IMG/VR virus record: IMGVR_UViG_3300021357_000001 | Length of the DNA stretch: 41,043 nucleotides | Reading direction: 5' to 3' (one strand) | DNA from: a virus | Part shown: one piece after another, positions 1-41,043 of the stretch | How positions within the stretch are numbered: position 1 is the stretch's first letter | Layout of the letters: the number at the start of each line of letters is the position of its first letter | Position numbers and translations under genes: made by a program | The notes under the pieces: model-generated | What the model was told of the DNA's origin: nothing | Seen by the model: only the letters and a program-made list of their open reading frames with translations | Database searches by the model: none

Positions 1-127
1 GATTATGTGTCTGTCCACAACAGGTAGGTGATATGGCTCCTCTGGGTCACAGATAGTCATCCAGAATGGTACTACCTTGGGGCCAGACAGGTGCCACCCG
101 ATAGGCTCCCCTTCTATCATTGCCATT
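1..127. repeat. Terminal direct repeat, copy 1 (identical to 40917-41043)
   Basis: Nt 1-127 match nt 40917-41043 base for base. The repeat lies inside a coding frame, so it is probably a circular-assembly overlap (127 is a common maximal k-mer) or terminal redundancy. Confidence 0.95.
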
Positions 128-399
128 GCCTTCACCTTGTTCGTATTGAAGGTGGTCAGGCGAGCACTCCATCCTTCCCACGCCAGCGCCCTTGCCTGGG
201 TTATGTTGGTCTCCCATGACGTAGCTGGTGAAATCACCGCGACGATTGCAGCGAATCGTCTCGGCTCGACCCCACACTCTGCTGCCGCTTCCCAGACCTG
301 GTTGTGTGCCCTCATATACCAGGCCAAGCCTTCCCAGACCTGGAACGATGTGGCCTGGCGAATAACCTTCCAGAGATTAGCTTTTATATCTGGTTCCAC
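1..399 (-). CDS. 5' part of a hypothetical early protein that runs off the left edge and continues at 41043->40716 (about 199 aa once the ends are joined)
   Basis: The minus-strand frame is open from the stop TGA (405-403) down to nt 1. GTG 399-397 is preceded by GGGGGTGA (410-403); an alternative ATG lies at 315-313. Nt 1-127 duplicate the upstream end of ORF 40716..41042 in the same frame. Confidence 0.7.
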   Translation of the reverse strand, partial: MEPDIKANLWKVIRQATSFQVWEGLAWYMRAHNQVWEAAAECGVEPRRFAAIVAVISPATSWETNITQARALAWEGWSARLTTFNTNKVKAMAMIEGEPIGWHLSGPKVVPFWMTICDPEEPYHLPVVDRHII

Positions 400-428
400 T
401 TTTCACCCCCAAAATTCAAAGTGAGACC

Positions 429-457
429 AGCTTATCAGGTATTTTTGTGCTTGTCAA
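429..457 (-). promoter_or_regulatory. Putative sigma70-type leftward early promoter
   Basis: Minus strand reads TTGACA (457-452), a 17-nt spacer, then TAAGCT (434-429). It sits just upstream of the SD and GTG of the wrap-around gene. Confidence 0.45.
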
Positions 458-550
458 GACCCTGTTTTGTGAGAGAAGACTACTATTATGTACCTCTACA
501 TGTTGTGGTTTTGTGGTATTGGCCTTCGACTGCCGAGGGCATATACTGAA

Positions 551-652
551 TGGATACATATTGTAGGAGTACAATATGTATGGATACATATTGTACTGGT
601 ACATATTGGCCCACTACATATTGAGTACCTACATATTGTACCCATACAATAT
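551..652. repeat. Iteron-like array of the 9-mer TACATATTG
   Basis: Direct copies start at 555, 585, 600, 615 and 630, giving 15-nt phasing. The 15-mer TGGATACATATTGTA is exact at 551 and 581. Inverted copies lie at 571-580 and 644-652, and a degenerate copy at 496-504. The array lies in non-coding DNA between divergent promoters. Confidence 0.85.
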
Positions 653-701
653 CACCGACGGAATCCGTAAGAAACTCGTCAAAATTGGTGGTAAAGTGGT
701 A

Positions 702-730
702 TTGACAAGTGCCTCAGATAGGTTTACCAT
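702..730 (+). promoter_or_regulatory. Putative sigma70-type rightward early promoter
   Basis: TTGACA (702-707), a 17-nt spacer, then TACCAT (725-730). It shares the extended -35 TTGACAAG with the promoter at 457-452. Confidence 0.45.
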
Positions 731-848
731 ATCTAGCAACAACCGAATAAAAGCCGAGCGAAAAGGCAAACAGGTCAGGAAAATCTAAATCCTGACCAAA
801 AGGATGGACGGATAGGCAATCCAGAGATAAAGGCGATGAGGCAATGAT

Positions 849-1046
849 ATGACGAGGTATACCATAATCTGCACAGAGTGCGGAAGATACGCTGTAGTAA
901 AACCCCCGTTGTCTTTAGTTTGCTTACCTTGCAAGGTAGGTAAGCTATCCGATGCGGAGTTTGTGGCACTAGCAAAAAAAGCATCAACGCCTTGGGAAAG
1001 AGATAGGTTAATGGATGCCAAGCTAGTGTATGAGGGGAAACTATGA
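849..1046 (+). CDS. Small zinc-ribbon protein (paralog 1)
   Basis: 65-aa ORF with GAGG 7 nt upstream. Contains CTEC ... CLPC, and the motif C-x-PC-[KR]-VG-[KR]-LS-x-x-EF shared with the next gene. Confidence 0.75.
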   Translation: MTRYTIICTECGRYAVVKPPLSLVCLPCKVGKLSDAEFVALAKKASTPWERDRLMDAKLVYEGKL

Positions 1047-1252
1047 ATTATACGGACGGAAAATGTAGAAACTGTGGGATGTTCTTTCGGCACCTATCTG
1101 GTGCCCCCTGGTTATGCATCCCATGCCGAGTAGGAAGATTGAGTAATGAAGAGTTCCAAGTACGACTCTTTCTCTCTACGCCGGAAATTGCTAAAGAATT
1201 AACGGATGCACGACGGCAGTATTTTGAATCACGAGAGGCGCAAAGTGGATAA
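1043..1252 (+). CDS. Small zinc-ribbon protein (paralog 2)
   Basis: 69-aa ORF with an ATGA overlap onto the previous gene. Contains CRNC ... CIPC and the shared motif RVGRLSNEEF. Confidence 0.75.
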   Translation: MNYTDGKCRNCGMFFRHLSGAPWLCIPCRVGRLSNEEFQVRLFLSTPEIAKELTDARRQYFESREAQSG

Positions 1253-1535
1253 ACAGACTTTAACCTTCACCTTCGAGAAAGAAACCAAAAACACAATCCG
1301 CTACCAGGAACAGACCGATGGGAAGCCACCGGCCATCGGCAGTCTGTACGTCCAGAAGTGGGCGTTAGGAAACCCAGTTCCAGAAATCCTGCAAGTTGTG
1401 GTGTTCGGGACACCAACAGTCCCTGAGGTAACTGAGGCTGTAGAGTTTGCAGGTGGTGGGCTACCATCTGCACCGACACCAGATTCAGCATTGTCTGAGC
1501 CTTCAGCCCCGTTACCTAAGCGGGCGAAGGGGTAA
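1245..1535 (+). CDS. Hypothetical protein
   Basis: Track ORF 1206..1535. The likely start is GTG 1245, 6 nt after GAGAGG. The C-terminus is rich in Pro, Ser and Ala. Confidence 0.55.
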   Translation: MDKQTLTFTFEKETKNTIRYQEQTDGKPPAIGSLYVQKWALGNPVPEILQVVVFGTPTVPEVTEAVEFAGGGLPSAPTPDSALSEPSAPLPKRAKG

Positions 1536-1538
1536 GGT

Positions 1539-1661
1539 ATGCTTGCACTGGCGATGATAGCTGGACTTGTGGCAGTGGCGTCAATGATGTCACTCCCTGA
1601 TAGTCTAGCGGTGGGCGCACTAGCGGGACTATTGTTGGTACGCCTACTACGAATAACATAG
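1539..1661 (+). CDS. Possible 40-aa membrane peptide
   Basis: ATG 1539 lies 6 nt after GAAGGGG. Translation is MLALAMIAGLVAVASMMSLPDSLAVGALAGLLLVRLLRIT. It is below the 60-aa cutoff of the ORF track. Confidence 0.3.
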   Translation: MLALAMIAGLVAVASMMSLPDSLAVGALAGLLLVRLLRIT

Positions 1662-1740
1662 CCAACGGCTCCGATATAGGCTCGTGGCAAGTCTAATGCC
1701 AGTGTCGCCATAAAACCAAAACACTGGCATAGGGAGAAAT

Positions 1741-2028
1741 ATGTTTGCAGAGAGAGTTAAAGCTGCGCTTGCTCAGTTTCCAGCCGAGTTTACCTGGGAG
1801 AGTTGCTATGGGATGGAGTATCTCTACGTAGAGATAGGGGAAAGACGTAAGGAAGTCTTCGTCCTAACACCCCATGAGGTGTTAGGAGAAGACCGACGCA
1901 GTCTCACGCCTTACCAGGCATACCTGGAACTGGAAAAAGCTAAGAATGACTTGGCCTACTTCCAAGCTAGCTTGGAAGACTGGTTAGCAGAGTTTGAGTA
2001 TCTGGTAGAGTGCGCTAAGTCTGACTAG
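1741..2028 (+). CDS. Hypothetical protein
   Basis: 95-aa ORF with GGGAGA upstream of the ATG. Confidence 0.6.
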   Translation: MFAERVKAALAQFPAEFTWESCYGMEYLYVEIGERRKEVFVLTPHEVLGEDRRSLTPYQAYLELEKAKNDLAYFQASLEDWLAEFEYLVECAKSD

Positions 2029-2031
2029 GCA

Positions 2032-2066
2032 ATAGGTCAGTCCAACTTGCGACTGGACTGACCTAT
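2032..2066 (+). terminator. Strong hairpin after the rightward early operon
   Basis: A 13-bp perfect stem, ATAGGTCAGTCCA (2032-2044) paired with TGGACTGACCTAT (2054-2066), with a 9-nt loop. It begins 3 nt after the stop codon. The U-tract that follows is weak. Confidence 0.5.
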
Positions 2067-2124
2067 CCGCTTGTCTAGCGTAGTTGAGACAAGGTATCAA
2101 GTGCAAGTAAGTGTACAATTACCT

Positions 2125-2230
2125 GGAAGTAAGTGAGTGTTCACTTACTTGCTGGTAAGTGAACGTTTACTTACAAGTTGGTAAGTAATGGCTTACTTAC
2201 TTGTTGGTAAGTGAGTGCTTACTTACCAGC
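2125..2230. repeat. Four tandem 26-bp units, each containing a palindrome GTAAGTRA-N2-4-TYACTTAC
   Basis: Palindrome centres at about 2138.5, 2164.5, 2190.5 and 2216.5, exactly 26 bp apart. The first unit is a perfect 10-bp inverted repeat, AAGTAAGTGA-gtgt-TCACTTACTT. Confidence 0.85.
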
Positions 2231-2234
2231 ATGT

Positions 2235-2288
2235 CGGGGGGCGTACAATCTTGTACGAAAGTGTACGAAGTTGTACAGACGTTCCCCC
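2235..2288. repeat. Four 10-bp-phased (T)GTAC repeats enclosed by a G6/C7 clamp
   Basis: GTAC occurs at 2243, 2253, 2263 and 2273. The repeats are flanked by GGGGGG (2235-2240) and CCCCCCC (2284-2290). Confidence 0.8.
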
Positions 2289-2291
2289 CTC

Positions 2292-2310
2292 GCGCTCTGA
2301 TTCAGAGCGC
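2292..2310. repeat. Palindrome GCGCTCTGA-t-TCAGAGCGC
   Basis: Perfect 9-bp arms, followed by an AT-rich tract at about 2325-2365. Confidence 0.8.
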
Positions 2311-2458
2311 ACATTCTGTTACGCTCTTTTCGTATTAAATTTTAGGTTTTAATAGACTAAAAACGCAACTCACCTCAAGTTGCCTAGAGCATGGGGTAGG
2401 TGGGCTTGTCCTCAGCCCTTCAGTCTTGAAGTGCTTGTTGCGGAGATAACATGCGAAA

Positions 2459-2515
2459 GGGTACATACTATATATAGTATGTACCCATTTCAAATAATGC
2501 AAGGTCTTCGCAAGG
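2459..2515 (+). promoter_or_regulatory. 57-nt composite element, copy A (28-bp perfect palindrome + ATTTCAAATAAT + GCAAGG-N5-GCAAGG)
   Basis: Palindrome GGGTACATACTATATATAGTATGTACCC (2459-2486). The tail is identical to the reverse complement of 37782-37800, with GCAAGG at 2499 and 2510. Confidence 0.85.
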
Positions 2516-2622
2516 CTAGAGATGGGGTACTCGTAGGGTGTACGAAGGAAAAGGGGGGATGTTCGCAGGATTGCTCGCACCGATGCTTTGCGAGCATATT
2601 TGCGGGGGAGTTAATTGGGTGG

Positions 2623-2847
2623 TTAGCCGCATATCAGGGTGACTACAGTAATACCAAACAATACCCCCACCAGAGCTGTAATAATCATACACACCACAAA
2701 GCATCCACGCCCAAGTTTTTGCCAAAGTCTGTGTTTCTTAACCATGATAAACATCATTGCCTCCTTCATGCCGTGAGACTTTTGATAAGCAGAAACAGCA
2801 GCAACATTGCGAACAGTCCACCAAATATTACCAGCCCTATGATACAC
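2623..2847 (-). CDS. Possible small membrane protein downstream of thyX
   Basis: 74-aa track ORF with a hydrophobic C-terminal half, CFVVCMIITALVGVLFGITVVTLI. An internal AAGGAGG suggests a shorter product of about 43 aa starting near 2754. Confidence 0.25.
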   Translation of the reverse strand: MYHRAGNIWWTVRNVAAVSAYQKSHGMKEAMMFIMVKKHRLWQKLGRGCFVVCMIITALVGVLFGITVVTLICG

Positions 2848-2881
2848 CCAAACAAAAACGGGTCTCTGTTATTCTCGTACA

Positions 2882-3685
2882 TTACTCTCCTCCTTCTACC
2901 AGTGCGGCCAGGCTAATCGGATATGCAAACTGGGCCAGCCTCCACACCGCATATGCATACTCCCTTATCTCGGCTTGTGCTTTGTCGGCTAGGCGCTCGT
3001 TGAGGAAGTGTGCCACAGCCGCCAGGCTTGCCGTCCAGCGCCAGGTCAAGTAGAGGCTATAGGCGGGCAGGAACAGCCTGGCCTGCTCCGGCGCAATAAC
3101 CTTGATTGCAGAGTGGTAGAGCCGAAGGCCCTCCTCAATGTATTGGACTAGGGCATCCATCCATCTGTCCTCGCAATCCACAGGCTCCTCTCCGCTTCCC
3201 TGTTTCCTGTTAGCTGGGGGGCTTCTCCACTTGCTGGGAATGTAAAACTCTGGCTCGCTAGTCACGTATCGCCTGCTACTCTCATTGCGGGCGTACATCG
3301 GGTCATCAAACCCTGCATCATCGGTGTGGGTACTGCCGACCCGATACTTGAACCATTGTCGTGCCACCATGAGCGGTGCCTTCACCTCAAATGAGAGGAT
3401 AGCGTGGCGGAATGGGGATGTCTCATATCGCCCAGCCAGGAAACGTATCAGCCTCACATCCTTGTCCGTTAGCTCATACGACTCCTTAAGGAACGACACC
3501 CTTGCTGCGTTCACTACTGTCAGGTCGTTTTGCTCCAGCCGCTCGACTAGCGCATCATGCGACCCACCCTCACTAATAATCTGGTACGCCTCACCCATTG
3601 CCCAGGGCATCCATGTCACCAGTCTCACGTACCCCTTGTCCAGACACCTTATCTTTAGCTCCGTGTGTTCTTTCTTTTTCAACAT
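2882..3685 (-). CDS. thyX: Flavin-dependent thymidylate synthase ThyX-like protein (divergent)
   Basis: Contains ThyX-like blocks: KGYVRLV near the N-terminus, RHAILSFEV...ARQWFKYR...ESSRRYV, and ARLFLP...AQAEIREYA. The likely start is ATG 3685 rather than GTG 3709. Confidence 0.75.
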   Translation of the reverse strand: MLKKKEHTELKIRCLDKGYVRLVTWMPWAMGEAYQIISEGGSHDALVERLEQNDLTVVNAARVSFLKESYELTDKDVRLIRFLAGRYETSPFRHAILSFEVKAPLMVARQWFKYRVGSTHTDDAGFDDPMYARNESSRRYVTSEPEFYIPSKWRSPPANRKQGSGEEPVDCEDRWMDALVQYIEEGLRLYHSAIKVIAPEQARLFLPAYSLYLTWRWTASLAAVAHFLNERLADKAQAEIREYAYAVWRLAQFAYPISLAALVEGGE

Positions 3686-3692
3686 GGTTTCA

Positions 3693-3722
3693 ATTTTATC
3701 ACACCCCACTTCTCCCTGTCAA
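3693..3722 (-). promoter_or_regulatory. Putative thyX promoter (leaderless)
   Basis: Minus strand reads TTGACA (3722-3717), an 18-nt spacer, then TAAAAT (3698-3693). The ATG follows 7 nt later and there is no SD. Confidence 0.4.
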
Positions 3723-3725
3723 CCG

Positions 3726-3734
3726 TGCTATAAT
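3726..3734 (+). promoter_or_regulatory. Putative extended -10 promoter for the packaging/structural operon (leaderless)
   Basis: TGCTATAAT at 3726-3734. ATG 3741 lies 6 nt downstream and there is no SD. Confidence 0.4.
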
Positions 3735-3740
3735 AGTACC

Positions 3741-4076
3741 ATGCCAAACGACCTAGCGAAAAGGCCAGTAGGCCGACCACCCACTGTCCAGGCTCAGGCC
3801 CTCGCATACGAAAAGACAGCTCGTCAAATACAGGCAGCAGTAAGGGGGGCGCTTGGCACGATAGCAGAACGTTACCCAGACCTCCTAGACAAAGCCTTCG
3901 AGATTGCGCTGGGCGGAGACCGCTCCATGCTCAAGTTTCTAATCGAGCTGCCGACCCGATTCATGCCAGAGATGGCAGACGAGGACTCCCCATTTGCCAA
4001 GTTGGTTGAGCGAGTTACTCTCAGCCGCACCAGGACTGCTATACTCCCGCAGGCCCCAGATGAGGAGCAGGCGTGA
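3741..4076 (+). CDS. Small terminase-like protein (N-terminal HTH)
   Basis: The start is internal ATG 3741 of track ORF 3285..4076; the upstream part of that ORF is antisense to thyX. The N-terminus KRPVGRPP is terS-like, and the gene sits immediately upstream of terL with a GTGA overlap. Confidence 0.55.
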   Translation: MPNDLAKRPVGRPPTVQAQALAYEKTARQIQAAVRGALGTIAERYPDLLDKAFEIALGGDRSMLKFLIELPTRFMPEMADEDSPFAKLVERVTLSRTRTAILPQAPDEEQA

Positions 4077-5518
4077 AGGTAGTGTGGCAGGACATCGCCT
4101 CTGAGGTACTTGGCACCCTTGGCATCACCCTGTCTGTGGAGCAAGCTGCTGCTTTCTGGTCTCCTGCACGTATTACACTTATTGGTGGGGGGGAAAGGGG
4201 TGGCAAGACCTTCATCTCCAGCCTCAAGGCCCTATGCTACTCCATTGCACTTAGCCTGACCGGACAGCTACCAGAAGTGCTAGTATGGTTTGTGGGGGCA
4301 GAGTATAAGGATGCACGGGCATCCTGGGAATCACCAGACCAACTTATCTCGTGGCTTCGTAAACTCGGTATGTTTAGCAGAGATACATTATCGATGCCCC
4401 AGGCCCGTGATGAGCCATGCTACCTCATTACCCGTGCGATTACTATGCCGGACGGCAGGCGAGTCACCCCCATCCGCTTCGAGACTGTCAGTGGGCATGA
4501 CCCCAGGGACATTGGGCGAGTCGAGCCGCACGTCATAAGCGGGGAGGAGCTGGGCCGCTGGCCCAAGGAACTTTGGGACAGATGTTATGGGAGGCTGGCT
4601 GCAAACTATGGTACTGCAATTGGTGTTTTTTCTGGCTCCTTCGAGTCTGACCAGCAGATGTTCGCTGAACTATTTGATATGGGTGCAGGCCCCAACACCC
4701 ACGACATCCAATCCTTCCCCATGCCTAGCTGGGCAAATCGCCAGAGGTATCCGGCAGGCCGACATGACCCCGCCATCGCTGACCTAGAATCAAGTATGTC
4801 ACCCGAACGTTTCATGGAAAGGCATGGTGGGAGGCCCGCTCCTCCCACCGACAGCGTGTTCCCAGAGTTTCGTACCATCCTGCATGTGAGGCAGTGTGAC
4901 ATGGTGATGGGGGAGCCAGTCTACCTCGCCATCGACCCAGCAAAGTACGTCTATGCGGTGGAGTTTGTGCAGCCAGTAGGGGGAGAAGTCCATGTCCTCG
5001 ACGAAGTATACCTTTACCAAACTACACACGAGCAAGTCATTGCTGAAACGGTTAACCGTCCGTTGTGGCGATACGTGACTGGTGGAGTGATTGATTGTGC
5101 GGGGGAGCGCCACCCATTCGGTCTTATGAGTGCAGCGGAGGCATGGCGTCGTGACACCGGCCTCACCCTCTCCTCCCAATACCTAAAACTTGACCAAACG
5201 ATAGAGCGTGTGCGAAGTACACTCAGCATCTCCCCCATCACCCATCGGCCTCGTCTCGCCATCGCCCCGACCTGCCGTGGCATGATAGCTGAGTTTGGTG
5301 GGGGGCCGTCCCCCATCCCTCGTGGTGGGAGGTGGCGTATGCAAGGGAAGACCCCTCGCACCGACAATTGCGATGCGGTGAAGGCACTAGGCTATCTACT
5401 CAGCCATCTCTACGGCACTCTGCGTCTCGACTTTCTCCCCGAACCAACTGAGCCAGTCACATACCTAACTCAGCGGCCCATGTCCCACCGCCAGGCCAAC
5501 TATCGGAGCAAACCTTGA
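4073..5518 (+). CDS. terL: Terminase large subunit
   Basis: 481 aa with Walker A-like GGERGGKT. The C-terminal half is nuclease-like: LAIDPA, VIDCAGE and NCDAVKALGY. The gene lies upstream of the portal gene, and GAGGAG precedes the GTG start. Confidence 0.85.
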   Translation: MKVVWQDIASEVLGTLGITLSVEQAAAFWSPARITLIGGGERGGKTFISSLKALCYSIALSLTGQLPEVLVWFVGAEYKDARASWESPDQLISWLRKLGMFSRDTLSMPQARDEPCYLITRAITMPDGRRVTPIRFETVSGHDPRDIGRVEPHVISGEELGRWPKELWDRCYGRLAANYGTAIGVFSGSFESDQQMFAELFDMGAGPNTHDIQSFPMPSWANRQRYPAGRHDPAIADLESSMSPERFMERHGGRPAPPTDSVFPEFRTILHVRQCDMVMGEPVYLAIDPAKYVYAVEFVQPVGGEVHVLDEVYLYQTTHEQVIAETVNRPLWRYVTGGVIDCAGERHPFGLMSAAEAWRRDTGLTLSSQYLKLDQTIERVRSTLSISPITHRPRLAIAPTCRGMIAEFGGGPSPIPRGGRWRMQGKTPRTDNCDAVKALGYLLSHLYGTLRLDFLPEPTEPVTYLTQRPMSHRQANYRSKP

Positions 5519-7281
5519 AACCAGATAATCTCACCGACCTCTGGATACAGACAAAGCGGTACTACGAAGGCATGTACGGCGCAATGCACCGAGCCAATCG
5601 TCTCTACAACCGTGAGTTCAGTGGACTCATTGAGGTGCCCGCAGGTGTCACAATCCACGAAAGTAGCACACCTACCCTAATCGTAGACTCACTGCGTGAC
5701 CAGATAAGGGTGGACGAGCCAAAAGTCACATTCGACCCCCGTGGCACCAGCATCAAGGCCAGGAAGCACAAAAACCTCATGGAGCTGTGGGGTCAGCATA
5801 TAATGGAAGGGCTAGCCCTCCACTCCATAGTTGACCCGATTGGACAAGCAGTGTTTGACCTGCTTTTGCGAGGCGCTGCCTGCATTAAGTGTGTGGTGGA
5901 TAATGACCTAGTGCCTGTACCACCTATTTCTGTCGACTACAGCACAAGAGTAAGTTATCTTACCGCCCTAGACGAGTATGAGACTAGACTGGCTAGATAT
6001 TGGCCCTGGGTATGCAAGGCAGTTGACCCACTGAATATCGCACTTGCCCCTGGTAGCCGGAGACCCCCCCAATTCGTCATCGAAAGACAGGTACGGCGGG
6101 CTGGTCAAATTGCCGATGACTATAGCTGGGCTGACCCACGCCGCCGTCACCCCGACTACTCGCCGATGCGGGAAGTGGAGTGGCTAGAATACTGGGACGC
6201 AGATAGTTATGTGGTAGAGGTGGATGGGGTACGCATTATTGACCGGCCCAACCCATACGGCCTCCCATCCTACATCTACAGCTATAGTGGGATGGGCCGT
6301 GCCGATGCGGATGGAGACCCAGTCCATCTCGCCATAAGCATACTGAGTACGGTGGCAGGGGAGCTAGAGGAAGAGGTACGCATTAAGACCGCACAGGCCG
6401 CACAGTGGCTTTATTATGTGTTTCCCATTTTGCTGACCCGTGGACTTCCTGCCACAGTACGCCAGCAAATGATGAGTGGGCCAGGTGCAATAATTCAGGT
6501 ATCGGAAGGGATGGCTGAAAGGCCCCAGTGGTTAGAGGTGCCTCCCCCTACTCCCTCCATGAACGAGTTTCTCCGTGCGATACAGCAGTCCATATTTCGC
6601 AAGGTCAGTCCCGCACTTCTCGAACGGCCTACCGGCGTAGACTATGGAATACACCAGGCACTACTAATCGGACAGGCACTCAAGGTTATCACACCAATAC
6701 GTACCGCACTTGACCGGATGGGCACTGACCTAATCAACCTAATGGCAAAACAAATGTCAACCATGCACATGCGAATGACTGTCATGGGCACAACTGAGAA
6801 GGGTGAACGAGAGTACACGGTTGGCCCAGAAGACTTCACCAACCTTAACTTCCACGTCACCTACGAGGCAACCGACCCAGCAGAGAATGACCGACGCATG
6901 CTCACTGGGCTGAGTGTGCTGAGAGTGCCAGGACTTATGAGTCGTGAAACCTGGCGAGACCGATTCGCCAAGGCAGTCATTCCAGACCCAGAAGCGGAAG
7001 AAGCGAAAATACTAGCCGAGCAAGCCATAGACCAATTTGTCGCCAGCGGCGGCCTTCTCCAACTCATCCAGCAGCAAGTGGGGGAGGAGCAGGTGGCGCA
7101 GGCCCAGGGCCAGGTCGGTGAGAGGCTAAGGGCTGGTGCGGAGCAAGAGTTGAGTCGTGGGCAAGCACTCACCGCAGAGGCAGGCATCCCCGAAGAATTG
7201 ACTGAGGCGGGAGCAGTCACCGCAGAAGGCGCACTTGCCCAGGCAGGCATCGCAGCAGCAGAAGGACAGCGAGGAATCTAA
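5515..7281 (+). CDS. Portal protein
   Basis: 588 aa, directly after terL with an overlapping TTGA. Size and position fit a portal. The C-terminal tail is rich in Ala, Glu and Gln. Confidence 0.7.
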   Translation: MKPDNLTDLWIQTKRYYEGMYGAMHRANRLYNREFSGLIEVPAGVTIHESSTPTLIVDSLRDQIRVDEPKVTFDPRGTSIKARKHKNLMELWGQHIMEGLALHSIVDPIGQAVFDLLLRGAACIKCVVDNDLVPVPPISVDYSTRVSYLTALDEYETRLARYWPWVCKAVDPLNIALAPGSRRPPQFVIERQVRRAGQIADDYSWADPRRRHPDYSPMREVEWLEYWDADSYVVEVDGVRIIDRPNPYGLPSYIYSYSGMGRADADGDPVHLAISILSTVAGELEEEVRIKTAQAAQWLYYVFPILLTRGLPATVRQQMMSGPGAIIQVSEGMAERPQWLEVPPPTPSMNEFLRAIQQSIFRKVSPALLERPTGVDYGIHQALLIGQALKVITPIRTALDRMGTDLINLMAKQMSTMHMRMTVMGTTEKGEREYTVGPEDFTNLNFHVTYEATDPAENDRRMLTGLSVLRVPGLMSRETWRDRFAKAVIPDPEAEEAKILAEQAIDQFVASGGLLQLIQQQVGEEQVAQAQGQVGERLRAGAEQELSRGQALTAEAGIPEELTEAGAVTAEGALAQAGIAAAEGQRGI

Positions 7282-7418
7282 TGCCAGTAAGTTCAAGGAA
7301 AGCGTTCCGACTATTCAAAGGTATTGCAGAAGGGACGATAAAAAAGAAGGGTATCACACCCAGCAAGGCAAAGGAAATGATTACAGGGAAAAAGAAGAGG
7401 AAGCGCACCTACAAATGA
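7281..7418 (+). CDS. Possible 45-aa highly basic protein
   Basis: Not in the ORF track. Its ATG overlaps the portal TAA, and it ends in an ATGA overlap with the next gene. Translation is MPVSSRKAFRLFKGIAEGTIKKKGITPSKAKEMITGKKKRKRTYK. Confidence 0.35.
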   Translation: MPVSSRKAFRLFKGIAEGTIKKKGITPSKAKEMITGKKKRKRTYK

Positions 7419-7654
7419 AAGAAGATATAACTCGCCAGGCTATGAAACAAGCAGCCCACCACATTCTTGCCGCAGCAGCACTCCTACGGGTCAAGATTCC
7501 GTTTGGCCCAACCCACGTACAATTAACACCAGCAGAGCTTCGACATGCGTGGGGACAGGCTGCACCAAATGCCCGTACCCGTCTGCTCGAAGAGCTGGGT
7601 TATGAGAAGCTACTTGAGGTGTTAGGAAGACAAAATGGCCCGCCTACCTACTAA
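7415..7654 (+). CDS. Hypothetical protein
   Basis: The start is internal ATG 7415 of track ORF 7235..7654. This avoids a 47-nt overlap with the portal gene, and the start is coupled to the previous small ORF. Confidence 0.45.
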   Translation: MKEDITRQAMKQAAHHILAAAALLRVKIPFGPTHVQLTPAELRHAWGQAAPNARTRLLEELGYEKLLEVLGRQNGPPTY

Positions 7655-9641
7655 ACCAGTCGCCCGCACGATTACCATACCTGCTGCTGAAATGCTGCGT
7701 GCGATAGACAAACGACTCCAATCGCTAGTCCGCCAGCCAGACGCAACTACGCCAGGTTCCCAGGCCAGCACCGAGATAGCACAGTTGCTAAGGGCGGAAC
7801 TCGCATGGGAAGGCACACTACGGCCAGGCAACCCACGTCCACTTGCCATAGGCGACACGGCCAACTCCACTGTAACGTCCCAGCCATCACTCATTTCTCC
7901 TGCTGCTATAGCTGAGTTTGAGCAACGGGCCGCCGCACTCGATGCGCTACTAGCCGCTTCAAGAGAAGGACAAATTGACCTGAGCAAGTACCAGGGAAAT
8001 ATCCGTCTGTCCGGTGCAACCGACACTCCAGATATAAGTATTGGTGGTAAGAGGACTGGACTTACCCTACGCCGTCAACCTTACGGTGAAGGAGATGCTG
8101 GAAAAGTTAGCCGCAGAGGTTATACCCAGTCAACGGGGCCAATAACTGGTAAGGTAGGGGCGTACCAGGTCAGTGGCACGACTACGCCTGTAGCAACAGG
8201 GCAATTAGTACCACCACCAATTCCAACGCCACCCAAACCTTCCGCAACGCCACCAACGCCCAGGACGCCGCCACCTTCCACAACGCCGCCCTGGACGATG
8301 ACGACGACGGCCATATCTACGTCAGACATTCCAACCTACGATATGTTGAGGAGTTATGGGGTAGACGAGCAAACTGCTAGGCACTTAGCCAAGAATATGA
8401 CACCAGAAAGGGCCGAAGAGTGGGCTATAGAATCAGGTTATTTAGGTTATGCTGGGGAAGGTCAACTTACTTCCAGCTCCTTCAATAAAACACCACCACT
8501 CGCTGAGTTAAAGGCGATATTGGATGCGGCAATGCAATCCATTGAGCGTGGCCTACAGCTCGACGACCCCGAAATGCAACAGCGGCTCCAGCCTCTAGCC
8601 GACAGCCTTGGTATTCATCTCAATCTTATGCTCGCCCTGATTGGAGACCAGCCCGACCTATTTGCTGAGTATATCACCCGTGCAGTCGAGTTTGCAAACA
8701 GGGAAGGACTTCAGCTCGCAGCGGTGTTGGAAGGACAGGCCATCCAGCGAGAAATAAGTGAGGCACGTACTGAGGATGCACGCCTTGACCGAATAGCGAG
8801 ACGTGAGGAGTTTTTAGCAAAGTTTGACCTGGACGAACAGATATTTTCCACCCAAATAGAGCAATTCAACACCTCACTGGCTGAAAATATCAGGCAGTAC
8901 GAAAAAACCTTTACAGAGAATGTGCGCCAATTCGAGGTGTCTGCTGGTTTCGAGGAGCGAAGACTAGACATTAGTGAGGCGGAGGAGGCCCGCAGCCGCT
9001 TCGCCTTCGAGCAGCGTACTCTCCCCATCAACCCCACCACCATCGCTAGTCACAACTCGCTCTTGAGTCGCTATTTCTCCTGGCCTGGCCTGACTAGCGA
9101 CCCTGACCAGCAGGTAGAGTGGGCCTACAACATCCTACGGCTTGCTCCACCTCCCCCTCCCCCTGGTTTCAGTGTAGACCAATTCGGCAATTACACTCAG
9201 GTGCAGGGTGTGCGTGACCCAGCCCTCGAAGACCTAATCCTCCGTCAACAAGTAGCGGTACAGCAATATGCGGTTCATAGGCAGCTCGCCGAGGCAATTG
9301 TAGCAGATGATAGACAATATCGGCTCGGCCAGCGAGAGTTGGAAGCTACACGAACTCAACTTCAGGCCGACCTTGCCACCAACCGTATTGACTCTGCCTT
9401 GGAACTCCAAATACGTGAGCACGAACTGCGCCAGCGTCAAGACGAAATACAAAATAAGCAGTGGTCGTTTAGTGTACTAGCCCTACTCCTGGCCAACCCA
9501 CAAGCCTATAGTGTAGCAACAGAGCAAGGTATGCTTCCCATGATTCAACAGATAACAGGGCTAGACATCCCCCCGTTTGTCGGGTCTGGCATGGCTCCCC
9601 TTGACTTCCGACCCACATTCACCCGCCGAGGTAGAAGATGA
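7635..9641 (+). CDS. Large virion-associated protein (Pro/Thr-rich linker plus coiled-coil C-terminal half)
   Basis: 668 aa with AGGAAG upstream. Contains PPPIPTPPKPSATPPTPRTPPPSTTPP at about 8220-8300. The C-terminal half is rich in Glu, Arg, Gln and Leu. It lies between the portal and scaffold genes. Confidence 0.6.
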   Translation: MARLPTKPVARTITIPAAEMLRAIDKRLQSLVRQPDATTPGSQASTEIAQLLRAELAWEGTLRPGNPRPLAIGDTANSTVTSQPSLISPAAIAEFEQRAAALDALLAASREGQIDLSKYQGNIRLSGATDTPDISIGGKRTGLTLRRQPYGEGDAGKVSRRGYTQSTGPITGKVGAYQVSGTTTPVATGQLVPPPIPTPPKPSATPPTPRTPPPSTTPPWTMTTTAISTSDIPTYDMLRSYGVDEQTARHLAKNMTPERAEEWAIESGYLGYAGEGQLTSSSFNKTPPLAELKAILDAAMQSIERGLQLDDPEMQQRLQPLADSLGIHLNLMLALIGDQPDLFAEYITRAVEFANREGLQLAAVLEGQAIQREISEARTEDARLDRIARREEFLAKFDLDEQIFSTQIEQFNTSLAENIRQYEKTFTENVRQFEVSAGFEERRLDISEAEEARSRFAFEQRTLPINPTTIASHNSLLSRYFSWPGLTSDPDQQVEWAYNILRLAPPPPPPGFSVDQFGNYTQVQGVRDPALEDLILRQQVAVQQYAVHRQLAEAIVADDRQYRLGQRELEATRTQLQADLATNRIDSALELQIREHELRQRQDEIQNKQWSFSVLALLLANPQAYSVATEQGMLPMIQQITGLDIPPFVGSGMAPLDFRPTFTRRGRR

Positions 9642-35433: not shown

Positions 35434-35660
35434 AACTCCTCTCCTATTAGGTCTGAGTCCTCATTTTCTGAGCACCCTTCTGTAATAACGTACTTTGGCA
35501 CACGCTTGCGATGGCTATAGCCAGCCAGGTATTCGTCTTGCAGGTATGGGCCTAGCGGCATGACGGGCAGGTAGAGTGGCCTAGCACACGCACAGCACAC
35601 CAGTGCACCCAACCATGCATCAAAGCAGAGCAGCCCCCCACATCTCATACAGTTCTTCAT
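35427..35660 (-). CDS. Zinc-ribbon protein
   Basis: 77 aa with CMRCGG...CCAC. Confidence 0.55.
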   Translation of the reverse strand: MKNCMRCGGLLCFDAWLGALVCCACARPLYLPVMPLGPYLQDEYLAGYSHRKRVPKYVITEGCSENEDSDLIGEELW

Positions 35661-35974
35661 TGCTCCTCCAAATCACTGAGTCCAGTCACACATCCCCGAA
35701 TGTTGGACTCAGGACGCCTAGCCCCCAAGTCGTTCGCATCAACAATACACCTTGCTTCGGCCTTGTTAATCCCAAATGCCTGGGATAGTATATCTGCTGC
35801 GAGTGGATGGGTACAGGGGTATACATAGCCAAGAAGGTCGGCCCCCACCCACCCAGCAAAACAGACTGGCCTACCAGTGAATATGTCGTGGAGCCTGTCC
35901 CGTCCGAGTTTAATGCCACGGGTATGCAGGCTAGTCAAGTAATCTAGGATTGTATTTTGTTGTGATGCGTTCAT
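35657..35974 (-). CDS. Early paralog family member A
   Basis: Shares these blocks with 35977, 36295, 37308 and 39576: IL-x-YL-x-L-x3-[IH]-x-L-x-R, P-x-C-F-A-G-[HW]-V, and AFG...EA..I..AN[DN]-x-G...PE..IR. Confidence 0.7.
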   Translation of the reverse strand: MNASQQNTILDYLTSLHTRGIKLGRDRLHDIFTGRPVCFAGWVGADLLGYVYPCTHPLAADILSQAFGINKAEARCIVDANDLGARRPESNIRGCVTGLSDLEEQ

Positions 35975-37307: not shown

Positions 37308-37625
37308 CTAGCTCATCCCCCCTAGCCACGCCCTTATTCCCAGCTCCGGCGTTTCATACGACGCATCGTCATTCGCCTCGACCAACCCTTCCGCCTCTGC
37401 CTCAGACAGCTCGAATGAAGCCATCAACGCTTGTCCTGCTACCGATACCTCTAAAGTTCTTGTAAAAGGCTGTCCATACAATTTGTCTATGGATGCGTGT
37501 CCAGCAATACAGTTTGGCTTGGAGTCATCGTTGAACATGGCATAGCGCCCAAGCTTTATTCCTCTACCTTCCAGGTCGGCCATGTATGCTAGTATTGCCT
37601 CGTGGGTTTCCGCTTTCATGTCCAC
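37308..37625 (-). CDS. Early paralog family member D
   Basis: Family blocks ILAYMADLEGRGIKLGR, PNCIAGHA and EAEAEGLVEANDD...PELGIRAWL. Confidence 0.65.
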   Translation of the reverse strand: MDMKAETHEAILAYMADLEGRGIKLGRYAMFNDDSKPNCIAGHASIDKLYGQPFTRTLEVSVAGQALMASFELSEAEAEGLVEANDDASYETPELGIRAWLGGMS

Positions 37626-37650: not shown

Positions 37651-37679
37651 AGGATACCATGTCAGTCACACTTTGTCAA
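37651..37679 (-). promoter_or_regulatory. Putative sigma70-type promoter upstream of paralog D
   Basis: Minus strand reads TTGACA (37679-37674), a 17-nt spacer, then TATCCT (37656-37651). Confidence 0.4.
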
Positions 37680-37771
37680 TGAGGCAAAATGTTCGCAACA
37701 CCCTTTTGCGAGTAATTTTGCGTGTACCGTGTCTGTGTCGTTTCGACAGTCTGGTGCACCCACATCTGAAA

Positions 37772-37828
37772 CCTTGCATCCACCTTGCATTATTTGAAAT
37801 GAGTGGATACTATATATAGTATCCACTC
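37772..37828 (-). promoter_or_regulatory. 57-nt composite element, copy B (inverted relative to copy A)
   Basis: Palindrome GAGTGGATACTATATATAGTATCCACTC (37801-37828). On the minus strand it is followed by ATTTCAAATAATGCAAGGT, then GGAT, then GCAAGG. Confidence 0.85.
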
Positions 37829-38033
37829 ATGCGAGCTTACGGATGTGTTCCTGTACTTCCTCTGGACTCGTTTGGCAACGATTATTGTATTCTATCTGGT
37901 CACGATAATCTAGTGCCATTCCCACATCATCCATTGCTTGACTAAATATCAGACTGTCTTGTGGAGTGGGGGTGTTCCATACCCCATTCTCATACTTAGA
38001 GAACTGGCAGCCCCGTAACTGGGCTACTCTCAT
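37827..38033 (-). CDS. Hypothetical protein
   Basis: 68 aa. Its stop codon lies inside the palindrome arm. Confidence 0.5.
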   Translation of the reverse strand: MRVAQLRGCQFSKYENGVWNTPTPQDSLIFSQAMDDVGMALDYRDQIEYNNRCQTSPEEVQEHIRKLA

Positions 38034-40738: not shown

Positions 40739-41043
40739 TATACTTCTCCTCTAGTTGTTCTTTCTGCACTAACCAGATAATCGCCTGGACTTGTTGAGGC
40801 AAGATGTGGAGTCCATACGCCATGTCTCTTATCGCATCCTGGATGAGAGAGACACGCCCCATGCCATGCCACTTGCGCCGTTCGCTATCTGTCAATGCCC
40901 TTCCCACCGCTGCGTGGATTATGTGTCTGTCCACAACAGGTAGGTGATATGGCTCCTCTGGGTCACAGATAGTCATCCAGAATGGTACTACCTTGGGGCC
41001 AGACAGGTGCCACCCGATAGGCTCCCCTTCTATCATTGCCATT
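40716..41043 (-). CDS. 3' part of the wrap-around hypothetical early protein (continues from nt 399->128)
   Basis: Track ORF 40716..41042. The frame has no stop before the window end and continues through the 127-nt overlap. Confidence 0.7.
   Translation of the reverse strand, partial: MAMIEGEPIGWHLSGPKVVPFWMTICDPEEPYHLPVVDRHIIHAAVGRALTDSERRKWHGMGRVSLIQDAIRDMAYGLHILPQQVQAIIWLVQKEQLEEKYNGLDIHT
40917..41043. repeat. Terminal direct repeat, copy 2 (identical to 1-127)
   Basis: Direct comparison of the two window ends. Confidence 0.95.

Follow-up and report, generated by a model that had tools for sequence, protein, structure and literature searches.

The λ nutR site lies just past an early gene and just before a terminator. 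λ also has activator-dependent antisense promoters, pRE and paQ, which carry TTGC-N6-TTGC sites for CII, and two-site replication systems are found in P4 (ori and crr) and in SPP1 (oriL and oriR). Nut sites are defined as a boxA, a spacer and a boxB (PMC2724277). Another kind of repeated element occurs in T4-type phages, where PeSLs, short multi-copy repeats of a stem-loop and a σ70 promoter, are found at insertion/deletion hot spots (PMC4122927, PMC2839356). PeSL cassettes are the nearest described reused stem-loop-plus-promoter motif. Here we describe a conserved signal of ~65 bases, a hairpin-forming palindrome joined to an invariant tail, of which one phage genome carries two copies, A and B. 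The element most likely acts in cis to mark a boundary of transcription or regulation, a broadly known type of signal, and its form is unusual in that a perfect 28–32-bp palindrome with an invariant one-sided tail is used once per arm.

The window, that is, the whole 41,043-nucleotide stretch of DNA analysed, is a circular assembly in which bases 1–127 are identical to 40917–41043, so that the circular genome is ~40.9 kb; an independent MEGAHIT contig of the same phage has 40916+141 bases. Small plus-strand genes run from 849 to 2028, and the plus-strand structural genes begin with TerS (about 3735) and TerL (4073–5518) and continue to 26522. The minus-strand arm, from the junction down to about 26431, encodes primase/helicase, nucleases, UDG and PolA. 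A convergent thyX operon (Pfam Thy1) occupies the minus strand from 3709 down to 2623, and TerS is served by an extended −10 promoter of its own (about 3727). Megablast of 1–8000 found no close relative among cultured phages; by tblastn, PolA and TerL are at most 25–30% identical to proteins of cultured phages, and the best TerL homologue outside the phage's own species is 49% identical. The group to which the phage belongs is known from metagenomes alone, and nearly all of the phage's early proteins are without a recognisable family. The features considered below are as follows.

702–730, plus strand: rightward divergent early promoter, TTGACA-17-TACCAT, from a promoter scan
457–452 (the TTGACA), minus strand: leftward divergent early promoter, TTGACA with TGaTAAGCT, from sequence reading
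2459–2486, plus strand: copy A palindrome (stem-loop 1), 28 bp, perfect, halves GGGTACATACTATA and TATAGTATGTACCC
2487–2524, plus strand: copy A tail, ATTTCAAATAAT + GCAAGG + TCTTC + GCAAGG + CTAG + AGATG
2564–2604, plus strand: copy A second dyad (hairpin 2), CGCAGGAT-TGCTCGCA-N9-TGCGAGCA-TATTTGCG, −20.3 kcal/mol, z = −2.5
2465–2493, minus strand: inward promoter-like match in copy A, TTGAAA-17-TAGTAT, 9/12
37799–37830, minus strand: copy B palindrome, 32 bp, perfect, halves ATGAGTGGATACTATA and TATAGTATCCACTCAT
37763–37800, minus strand: copy B tail, ATTTCAAATAAT + GCAAGG + TGGAT + GCAAGG + TTTC + AGATG
37684–37721, minus strand: copy B hairpin 2, GCAAAAT-TAC-TCGCAA-AAGGGTG-TTGCGA-AC-ATTTTGC
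37651–37679, minus strand: σ70-like promoter of the next gene block (first gene 37308–37625), TTGACA-17(TG)-TATCCT
37794–37822, plus strand: inward promoter-like match in copy B, TTGAAA-17-TAGTAT, 9/12

By direct reading, both copies are present exactly as an earlier note on this DNA described them, with B inverted: copy A (2459–2515, plus strand) is GGGTACATACTATATATAGTATGTACCC + ATTTCAAATAAT + GCAAGG TCTTC GCAAGG, and copy B (37828–37772, minus strand) is GAGTGGATACTATATATAGTATCCACTC + ATTTCAAATAAT + GCAAGG TGGAT GCAAGG. The two have in common 16 bp of palindrome core and 18 nt of tail, both invariant. The 28-bp palindrome that had been noted in each copy is correct for A; in B those 28 bp are 37801–37828, and AT/AT extends them to 32 bp. 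Similarity between A and B reaches as far as AGATG (2520–2524 and 37767–37763), and the element is the leading part of a ~150-nt module. Within the tail, conserved blocks alternate with short variable blocks, and the blocks TTTCAAA, GCAAGG, GCAAGG and AGATG follow one another with a period of about 10–11 bp. Hairpin 2 starts 48 nt past the second GCAAGG in A and 49 nt past it in B, and the length of this spacer is fixed in A, B and the related contig L014, while its sequence drifts. In both copies hairpin 2 is flanked by A and T runs, and its significance is weak (z = −1.1 to −2.5). Since the window is circular, A and B both face outward from the divergent early promoters, and the statement that outgoing early transcripts would read them in the same sense is borne out.

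In the genome there are two occurrences each of the 18-nt tail and of the 16-nt palindrome core, a number that stays at two when 3 mismatches are allowed; the chance expectation is 0.04, and two matches were reached in 0 of 100 shuffles. Exact matches to GCAAGG-N5-GCAAGG are likewise confined to copies A and B. The two palindromes, 32 bp at 37799–37830 and 28 bp at 2459–2486, are the longest perfect ones in the genome, and the longest in 200 Markov simulations was 22 bp. A and B differ in the first arm at positions 2, 5 and 6, and each difference is matched by its exact complement in the second arm, at 27, 24 and 23 respectively; the calculated probability that three random second-arm substitutions would mirror the first arm is about 1e-4. 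There are three informative sequences, A, B and L014, and when these were aligned, 12 of the 12 scored pairs were Watson–Crick in every sequence, 3 pairs being double-changed. No mismatch was found among the 36 scored stem cells, and slid-register controls pair at 19–61%. Taken together, the three sequences have four compensated pair states over three stem positions. The arm differences are truly compensatory, as had been proposed from the three mirrored A–B changes, to which L014 adds another pair. The lower stem covaries, and the upper stem, loop and flank are invariant. As judged from this alignment, the outer stem is under selection for base pairing, and the core and tail, relative to the diverged flanks, are under purifying selection. 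The A–B differences are embedded in identical sequence, and so the copies cannot owe their identity to gene conversion.

The suggested RNA folding gave a stable stem-loop at both sites, the 101-nt contexts folding at z = −6.0 for A and −3.4 for B. Copy A RNA forms a 12-bp stem with a UAUA loop and an extension, GAAA/UUUC, with one bulge, and the copy B 32-mer hairpin has an energy of −19.7 kcal/mol. There are no G-U pairs in the stem, all pairs being Watson–Crick on both strands, and the fold of the window module has no sense preference (−34.45 kcal/mol outward vs −33.77 inward). Of the proposal that the palindrome is selected as an RNA hairpin or as a dimer-binding site, selection for pairing is upheld; an RNA level is plausible from the sequence, and DNA fits equally.

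A metagenome scan with the element itself returned a single informative contig, L014 (Ga0213870), which is the only diverged relative found and is about 80% identical in nucleotide sequence over 35.2–39.5 kb. L014 retains copy B at the same stop codon, in answer to the question of whether relatives keep the element. The L014 arms, GAGTAGAT.../...ATCTACTC, have one extra pair changed from G:C to A:T on both sides, so that the palindrome is again a perfect one of 32 bp. Over the 49 nt from the palindrome to GCAAGGTGG, window and L014 differ solely by this compensated pair, the tail being identical, and the 44 nt past GCAAGGTGG are about 50% diverged. Beyond that segment the second dyad, near-invariant in L014, and the downstream promoter are again almost unchanged; the promoter's hexamers and 5' leader are conserved and its spacer has diverged. 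The same phage was assembled from other samples three more times, and these assemblies match the window exactly at A and B. They run collinear with it across either one or both of the copies, as does L014 across copy B.

Elsewhere the element was not found. The exact tail 18-mer had 3 matches in IMG/VR and 44 in 185,579 genomes, all of them coding or unrelated and none with the palindrome; since these are chance matches only, the element is neither a host repeat nor a prophage sequence. Nothing in IMG/VR matched the palindrome core plus tail or either of two blocks taken from the promoter region of copy B, and the 68-aa and 103-aa neighbours of copy B had no homologues beyond themselves. The covariance search that had been suggested was negative: the element's model matched nothing in about 1 Mb from about 90–105 relatives' loci. 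With Rfam 15 there was nothing at gathering thresholds in the whole window, and at E <= 5 there were only chance miRNA and snoRNA matches around A and B. The element is specific to this phage lineage. Two coding explanations were rejected. An open reading frame crosses both copies in the same frame; in L014 it has no start codon and an early stop, and all codon positions are invariant. A small frame after the second GCAAGG would encode 4 residues in A but 29 in B, and in L014 it lacks an ATG.

The early-gene block spans 5.7 kb and has one copy at either outer edge, the distances to the early promoters being about 1.7 and 3.6 kb; both copies share the sense of their outward flanking genes. Copy B starts within the TGA stop (37827–37829) of a 68-aa gene, 37827–38033, the last of the leftward early block. 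The conserved σ70-like promoter of the next block is about 90–120 nt downstream of copy B, the centre of hairpin 2 being ~58 bp upstream of its predicted start. Thus in both the window and L014, copy B is positioned between a stop codon and a conserved promoter. Copy A is within a 600-nt non-coding, highly structured stretch (2029–2622), 430 nt past the last plus-strand gene and not at a gene end. Upstream of it are three strong plus-strand hairpins at 2035–2066, about 2236–2290 and 2292–2335, the last with a T-rich tail, and with these hairpins standing in front, early rightward transcripts may never reach copy A. Past it lies the convergent thyX operon rather than middle or late genes, and the TerS promoter is 1.2 kb away. 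No promoter follows hairpin 2 of copy A, and a minus-strand ORF of the thyX cassette ends at 2623. Near copy A, at 230–330 bp, are four exact dyad iterons of 26-bp period, GTAAGT-N8-ACTTAC at 2129–2226, and an AT-rich stretch is found at 2335–2365. The earlier note's idea that the element marks the early-to-middle/late boundary on both sides fits copy B, with its stop codon and promoter, and is weakened for copy A, which is followed by thyX.

Neither copy has a U-tract, and a hairpin-plus-T-run scan calls neither of them; the tail is AUUUCAAAUAAU. Strong stop-proximal hairpins after 2028 and after 39000 are likewise without a U-tract, so a missing U-tract is not unusual in this genome.

An analogous pair is present in L004, a metagenomic contig from Hainich groundwater with the same two-arm layout and a TerL 46% identical to that of the window. 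L004 has its own inverted pair, of about 130 nt and with 78% identity between copies, at the equivalent two positions. The left-arm copy is just past a gene end and ahead of a promoter; the right-arm copy, directly ahead of TerS, is behind a canonical terminator (9044–9077) and an iteron array. Strong σ70-like promoters follow both copies at 40–50 bp, TTGACC-17-TATAAT before TerS and TTGACA-17-TAAGTT on the other arm, unlike the situation at copy A of the window, where there is no downstream promoter. The outward consensus fold of the L004 pair is −22.2 kcal/mol, with 34 pairs, 10 one-sided changes of the G-U type and no broken pair, and the inward fold is −12.1 kcal/mol, with 17 pairs. Besides the layout, the L004 and window pairs have in common AT-rich sequence (TATATATA), internal palindromes and an inward promoter-like match, whose hexamers are at aligned positions in both L004 copies. 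Their sequences are unrelated, there being no covariance-model match, and L004 has repeated ATGTCG/CGACAT half-sites in place of the one long perfect palindrome of the window. Among the 27 loci with at least 5 kb upstream of TerL, a long-range inverted pair was seen in this phage and in L004 only. The paired layout is recurrent, and it is not universal or family-wide.

The likeness to λ nutL and nutR that had been proposed is one of geometry. As in λ, each of the two divergent early operons has its own copy, oriented with transcription; a hairpin adjoins a conserved linear tract; and copy B shares with nutR a place just after an early gene and just before a terminator. The constituents of a nut site are missing. 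No match to boxA (CGCUCUUA or UGCUCUUUA) was found on the transcribed strand beside either copy. The genome counts of boxA-like matches, 11 and 25, equal the shuffle expectation of 12.9 and 24.5, and the nearest match, at 2322–2330, is 130 nt upstream of copy A and part of another hairpin. The linear tract of the element is 3' of its hairpin and that of the λ nut site is 5'. The element's stem is 12–16 bp with a UAUA loop, but boxB has a 5-bp stem and a purine-rich pentaloop, which is bound by the arginine-rich N. The element sites are, unlike λ nut sites, kilobases from the promoters, and no N-like, arginine-rich or Q-like protein was recognised among the phage proteins scanned.

The alternative suggestion of paired early terminators is borne out in part. 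Copy B resembles an intrinsic terminator or a 3'-stabilising hairpin, being a stable stem-loop over the stop codon at the end of a gene block with a promoter downstream; unlike an intrinsic terminator, the element has no U-tract, has invariant sequence past the stem that is reused on the other arm, and in copy A is not at a gene end. With PeSLs it shares a conserved stem-loop and σ70 promoter reused in one genome beside an insertion, here the thyX cassette. It is unlike PeSLs in having two inverted copies at symmetric boundaries, a much longer and perfectly palindromic stem, and a promoter that is about 120 nt off after B and missing after A. The opposite strand recalls pRE and paQ, with CCTTGC-N5-CCTTGC followed by a −35/−10-like pair directed against the early genes. 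Differences are that these repeats are upstream of the −35 and do not flank it, that their period is 11 bp vs 10, that no CII-like protein was identified, and that reading the element as an antisense promoter leaves the stem covariation unexplained.

The reading that we favour, at a probability of roughly 0.38, is that the outgoing transcript forms a stem-loop at the element and that this structure closes the early units, as a terminator or as a signal for 3' ends that is read by a factor. When an outgoing early transcript reached the module, the 28–32-nt palindrome would form a long stem-loop with perfect pairing, which in copy B would coincide with the stop codon of the final early gene. This structure would then end or punctuate the early transcript, by inefficient or factor-assisted termination, or alternatively might act as a 3'-end-protecting or processing hairpin. 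The tract 3' of the stem (ATTTCAAATAAT GCAAGG ...) would be read by a phage or host factor that sets passage into the next block. Among the early proteins, candidates for such a factor include two CxxC proteins (849–1252) and a five-member paralogue family. Mirrored compensatory change means that intrastrand pairing is required, and the simplest place for such pairing is the outgoing transcript; the position of copy B, at a stop codon, in the sense of transcription and just before the next promoter, also favours this reading. The better outward fold of the L004 pair, as an analogy, may be counted in its favour as well. We infer that the pairing is in RNA rather than DNA, that transcripts are stopped or processed at the element, and that a factor reads the tail. 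Arguing against a stem-loop of this kind are the lack of a U-tract and the situation of copy A, which is behind terminator-like hairpins with no promoter after it and nothing beyond for it to control; the L004 right-arm copy is likewise behind a canonical terminator. Further, the all-Watson–Crick pairs fit DNA as well as RNA, the module is without sense preference, and an ordinary terminator needs no invariant 18-nt tail; the tail can be accounted for just as well at the level of double-stranded DNA, by a regulator site or an inward promoter, and the informative sequences number only three. The 10–11-bp period of the blocks and the spacer of fixed length and drifting sequence look like recognition of double-stranded DNA on one face. 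A composite, in which an outward hairpin overlaps DNA-level signals, is possible.

Such recognition would be expected if the module were a double-stranded-DNA regulatory region in which regulator sites switch on, or hold off, the first middle/late promoter of each arm. A phage-encoded regulator would bind at the palindrome, at the GCAA-type repeats and at the second dyad, and the use of the same upstream region on both arms would account for the inversion of the copies. We regard this as a doubtful reading, which the following points favour: in B and L014 the module is directly upstream of a conserved σ70-like promoter, with the second dyad near −58; GCAA occurs six times in the B module, 4 direct and 2 inverted, at 11–12-bp spacing; spacer length is conserved and spacer sequence is not; the L004 copies, built of ATGTCG/CGACAT half-sites, are 40–50 bp upstream of strong promoters; and each stem pair is Watson–Crick on both strands. 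An operator bound by a dimer, however, gives no reason for mirrored complementary change of the arms within one genome, copy A has no downstream promoter and yet has a core as intact as that of B, and no DNA-binding domain was recognised in any of the early proteins. The same difficulty over arm covariation within a genome led us to reject a hairpin-telomere site, since protelomerase is a dimeric enzyme, and no such enzyme was found. Copy A would be no obstacle to an inward promoter, which would work without any outward one. Here the tail would supply the −35 (TTGAAA) and the activator repeats CCTTGC-N5-CCTTGC, immediately upstream of the match in copy A, and the palindrome the −10 (TAGTAT); antisense or small RNAs made back into the early block would help early shut-off, by the logic of λ pRE and paQ. 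The 9/12 σ70 match with its 17-bp spacer is at the same place in both copies, is retained in L014, covers every invariant block, and has its counterpart in the aligned inward hexamers of the L004 pair. At A, a minus-strand terminator, GCAACTTGAGGTGAGTTGC + GTTTTTAG at 2383–2365, is 75–95 nt downstream and would give a ~100-nt RNA; at B, the putative transcript would be antisense to the 68-aa gene. We nevertheless consider an inward promoter quite unlikely, because such matches occur about once per kb by chance (4.3 expected in 4.2 kb) and the element is AT-rich, because the predicted start is just outside the palindrome and leaves the compensatory changes unexplained, and because no terminator is downstream at B, nothing downstream is conserved between A and B, and the putative 100-nt RNA is not unusually structured (z = −1.5). 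Promoters for a phage RNA polymerase were rejected, no such polymerase being detectable; the 1864-aa protein matched nothing in Pfam or PDB and is without a DxDGD motif.

Antitermination of the nut or put kind would have the nascent hairpin and tail load a factor, or act on polymerase, with read-through of hairpin 2. Besides the nut-like arrangement of one copy per early operon, the covarying lower stem with invariant upper stem, loop and flank is typical of RNA hairpins recognised by proteins, and a second hairpin with A and T runs stands at a fixed distance in both copies. This is a very unlikely reading given the lack of a boxA, a stem and loop unlike boxB, no Rfam match even at E <= 5, sites far from the promoters, no arginine-rich or Q-like protein, and the weak significance of hairpin 2; moreover, a promoter follows B anyway, and read-through at A would lead only antisense into thyX. 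Slightly less probable still is a replication structure, in which the AT-centred palindrome would be extruded as a cruciform or single-strand hairpin and serve, with the repeats, as an accessory site of an origin. Perfect Watson–Crick symmetry on both strands and the (TA)4 centre would suit extrusion, copy A is near the four iterons and the AT-rich stretch 2335–2365, and L004 has an iteron array ahead of its right-arm copy; but there are no iterons near copy B, no initiator gene was identified, GC skew does not switch at either site, and the orientation rule relative to transcription is left unexplained. We think it most improbable that the copies are recombination sites by which the early block could be inverted, or that a mobile regulatory cassette has been duplicated, leaving PeSL-like remnants of a terminator/promoter unit that spreads by recombination. 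It is true that inverted repeats of 57–74 nt flank a 5.7-kb segment, that the thyX cassette, by comparison with L004, was inserted right beside copy A, and that an association with insertions and deletions is described for PeSLs, which are conserved composite terminator/promoter motifs (PMC4122927). Among the three same-phage assemblies and L014, however, there was no inverted isomer, all of them being collinear where they span the copies; no recombinase domain was recognised in the window proteins scanned; a mobile cassette would be represented by two copies only, one of which, A, has no promoter half; and both copies are under strong purifying selection, which speaks for a function at the present day.

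One further possibility, which we rate as unlikely, is that the element is the recognition site of a new phage-encoded factor whose action on the transcription complex takes place at either edge of the early block. Its target would be the hairpin in nascent RNA, or else a hairpin that the (TA)4-centred palindrome extrudes as DNA, and the factor would time the early-to-middle switch by termination or antitermination unrelated to N/nut, Q/qut or put. Co-evolution of such a factor with its site would explain why an unrelated pair is found at the same two positions in L004. In sum, the element is a rare sequence-readable handle on the order of gene expression in this metagenome-only phage group. 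If a factor reads it, the pair would constitute a simple, testable switch, and its sequence could serve as bait in the search for the factor. Should the element be an ordinary cassette of the terminator or operator type, annotation of the group would still gain a marker of the early/middle boundary.

The genome form was apparent from the ends of the window. Positions 1-127 are repeated without a difference at 40917-41043, and with its two ends overlapping exactly over 127 bp, the window is shown to be an assembly closed into a circle, the genome measuring 40,916 bp. Assemblies of this phage also come from a minimum of three further samples (ENA ERZ27245926, JGI 3300035409 and SRR7080745).

The divergent early promoters at about 457 and 702 are separated by a gap that is filled by copies of one short repeat, and the rightward early genes begin with two whose protein products are related.

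543-652, both orientations: seven to eight copies of TACATATTGTA, spaced by about 15 bp
849-1046, plus strand: 65-aa protein with CxxC...CxxC motifs
1043-1252, plus strand: 69-aa paralogue with CxxC...CxxC motifs
1819-1836: 18-bp perfect palindrome TATCTCTACGTAGAGATA, in the 95-aa early gene 1741-2028
1959-1978: 20-bp perfect palindrome CTTCCAAGCTAGCTTGGAAG, in the same gene

The repeats probably make up the operator array that serves the early switch. In copy A, the palindrome-plus-tail element at 2459-2515, the arm TACATACTATA agrees with the repeat motif at 9 of 11 positions, a resemblance that may be coincidence. The two CxxC proteins are 35% identical (E = 6e-9) and may be zinc-ribbon regulators. 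Neither matched Pfam at E <= 0.01, and they are therefore unlinked to known zinc-finger activator families such as Ogr/Delta. Within the first early gene, TACCTTGCAAGGTA (925-938) presents the GCAAGG motif in palindromic form.

An array of dyad iterons occupies part of the stretch that separates copy A from the rightward early genes, and potential RNA structures follow on both strands.

About 2105: fifth, degenerate iteron unit
2129-2226: four 20-bp dyad iterons GTAAGT-N8-ACTTAC, starting at 2129, 2155, 2181 and 2207
2232-2345 region, plus strand: long hairpin with G6/C6 closing and repeated TGTAC motifs inside
Within 2232-2345, plus strand: first alternative hairpin, GCGCTCTGA-TTC-AGAGCGC
Within 2232-2345, plus strand: second alternative hairpin, AGAGCG-N12-CGCTCT, then TTTTCGTATT
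2357-2458, minus strand: candidate small RNA, about 100 nt long, between the inward promoter-like site of copy A and a terminator
2383-2365, minus strand: terminator GCAACTTGAGGTGAGTTGC+GTTTTTAG

The spacing of the iterons is exactly 26 bp, none being expected by chance, and the array looks like an origin or an operator array. L004, a distant metagenomic relative, has different iterons of the CTGAGGTT.GTTATTATCTGA type at 9120-9280, in the same relative position. The two alternative hairpins, which follow the G6/C6 hairpin, are mutually exclusive, and the whole structure resembles an attenuator, or a terminator, placed where the rightward early transcript truly ends. On the opposite strand, the fold of the candidate small RNA is not unusual (z = -1.5), and its terminator could alternatively mark the end of the thyX operon.

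2623-3735, minus strand: thyX cassette, comprising thyX and two tiny hydrophobic ORFs
3722-3693: thyX promoter TTGACA-18-TAAAAT
About 3727: TerS extended -10 promoter TGcTATAAT

By comparison with L004, the cassette is an insertion between copy A and TerS. The thyX and TerS promoters are arranged back to back, and TerS appears to be nearly leaderless.

The leftward side carries a family of five paralogues and a further hairpin.

35657-35974, minus strand: paralogue of about 100 aa
35977-36276, minus strand: paralogue of about 100 aa
36295-36597, minus strand: paralogue of about 100 aa
37308-37625, minus strand: paralogue of about 100 aa
39576-40010, minus strand: paralogue of about 100 aa
38908-38936: GC-rich hairpin AGGCCCC-TTAT-GGGGCCT, between two leftward early genes

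The paralogues are 32-38% identical and share the motif ILxYLxxLE...RPxCFAGHV...AFG...ANDxGG...IR; no homologues were found in Pfam, PHROG or the database. Three of the five genes are in tandem, and one member lies directly downstream of copy B, the inverted counterpart of copy A, and its promoter. The T-run of the hairpin is on the plus strand, opposite to the direction of the genes.

Among the relatives, L012 (5873-11847) and L019 (8080-13557) encode giant proteins of 2328 and 2547 aa, longer than the 1864-aa protein that occupies this position in the window. Both have a precomputed Pfam Phage_integrase match, that of L012 being flagged as weak; the 1864-aa protein has no such match. In L021, a distant relative, a 42-nt inverted repeat (750-791 and 1249-1290, 81% complementary) brackets an Endonuclease_7 gene, and together they may form a small mobile unit.
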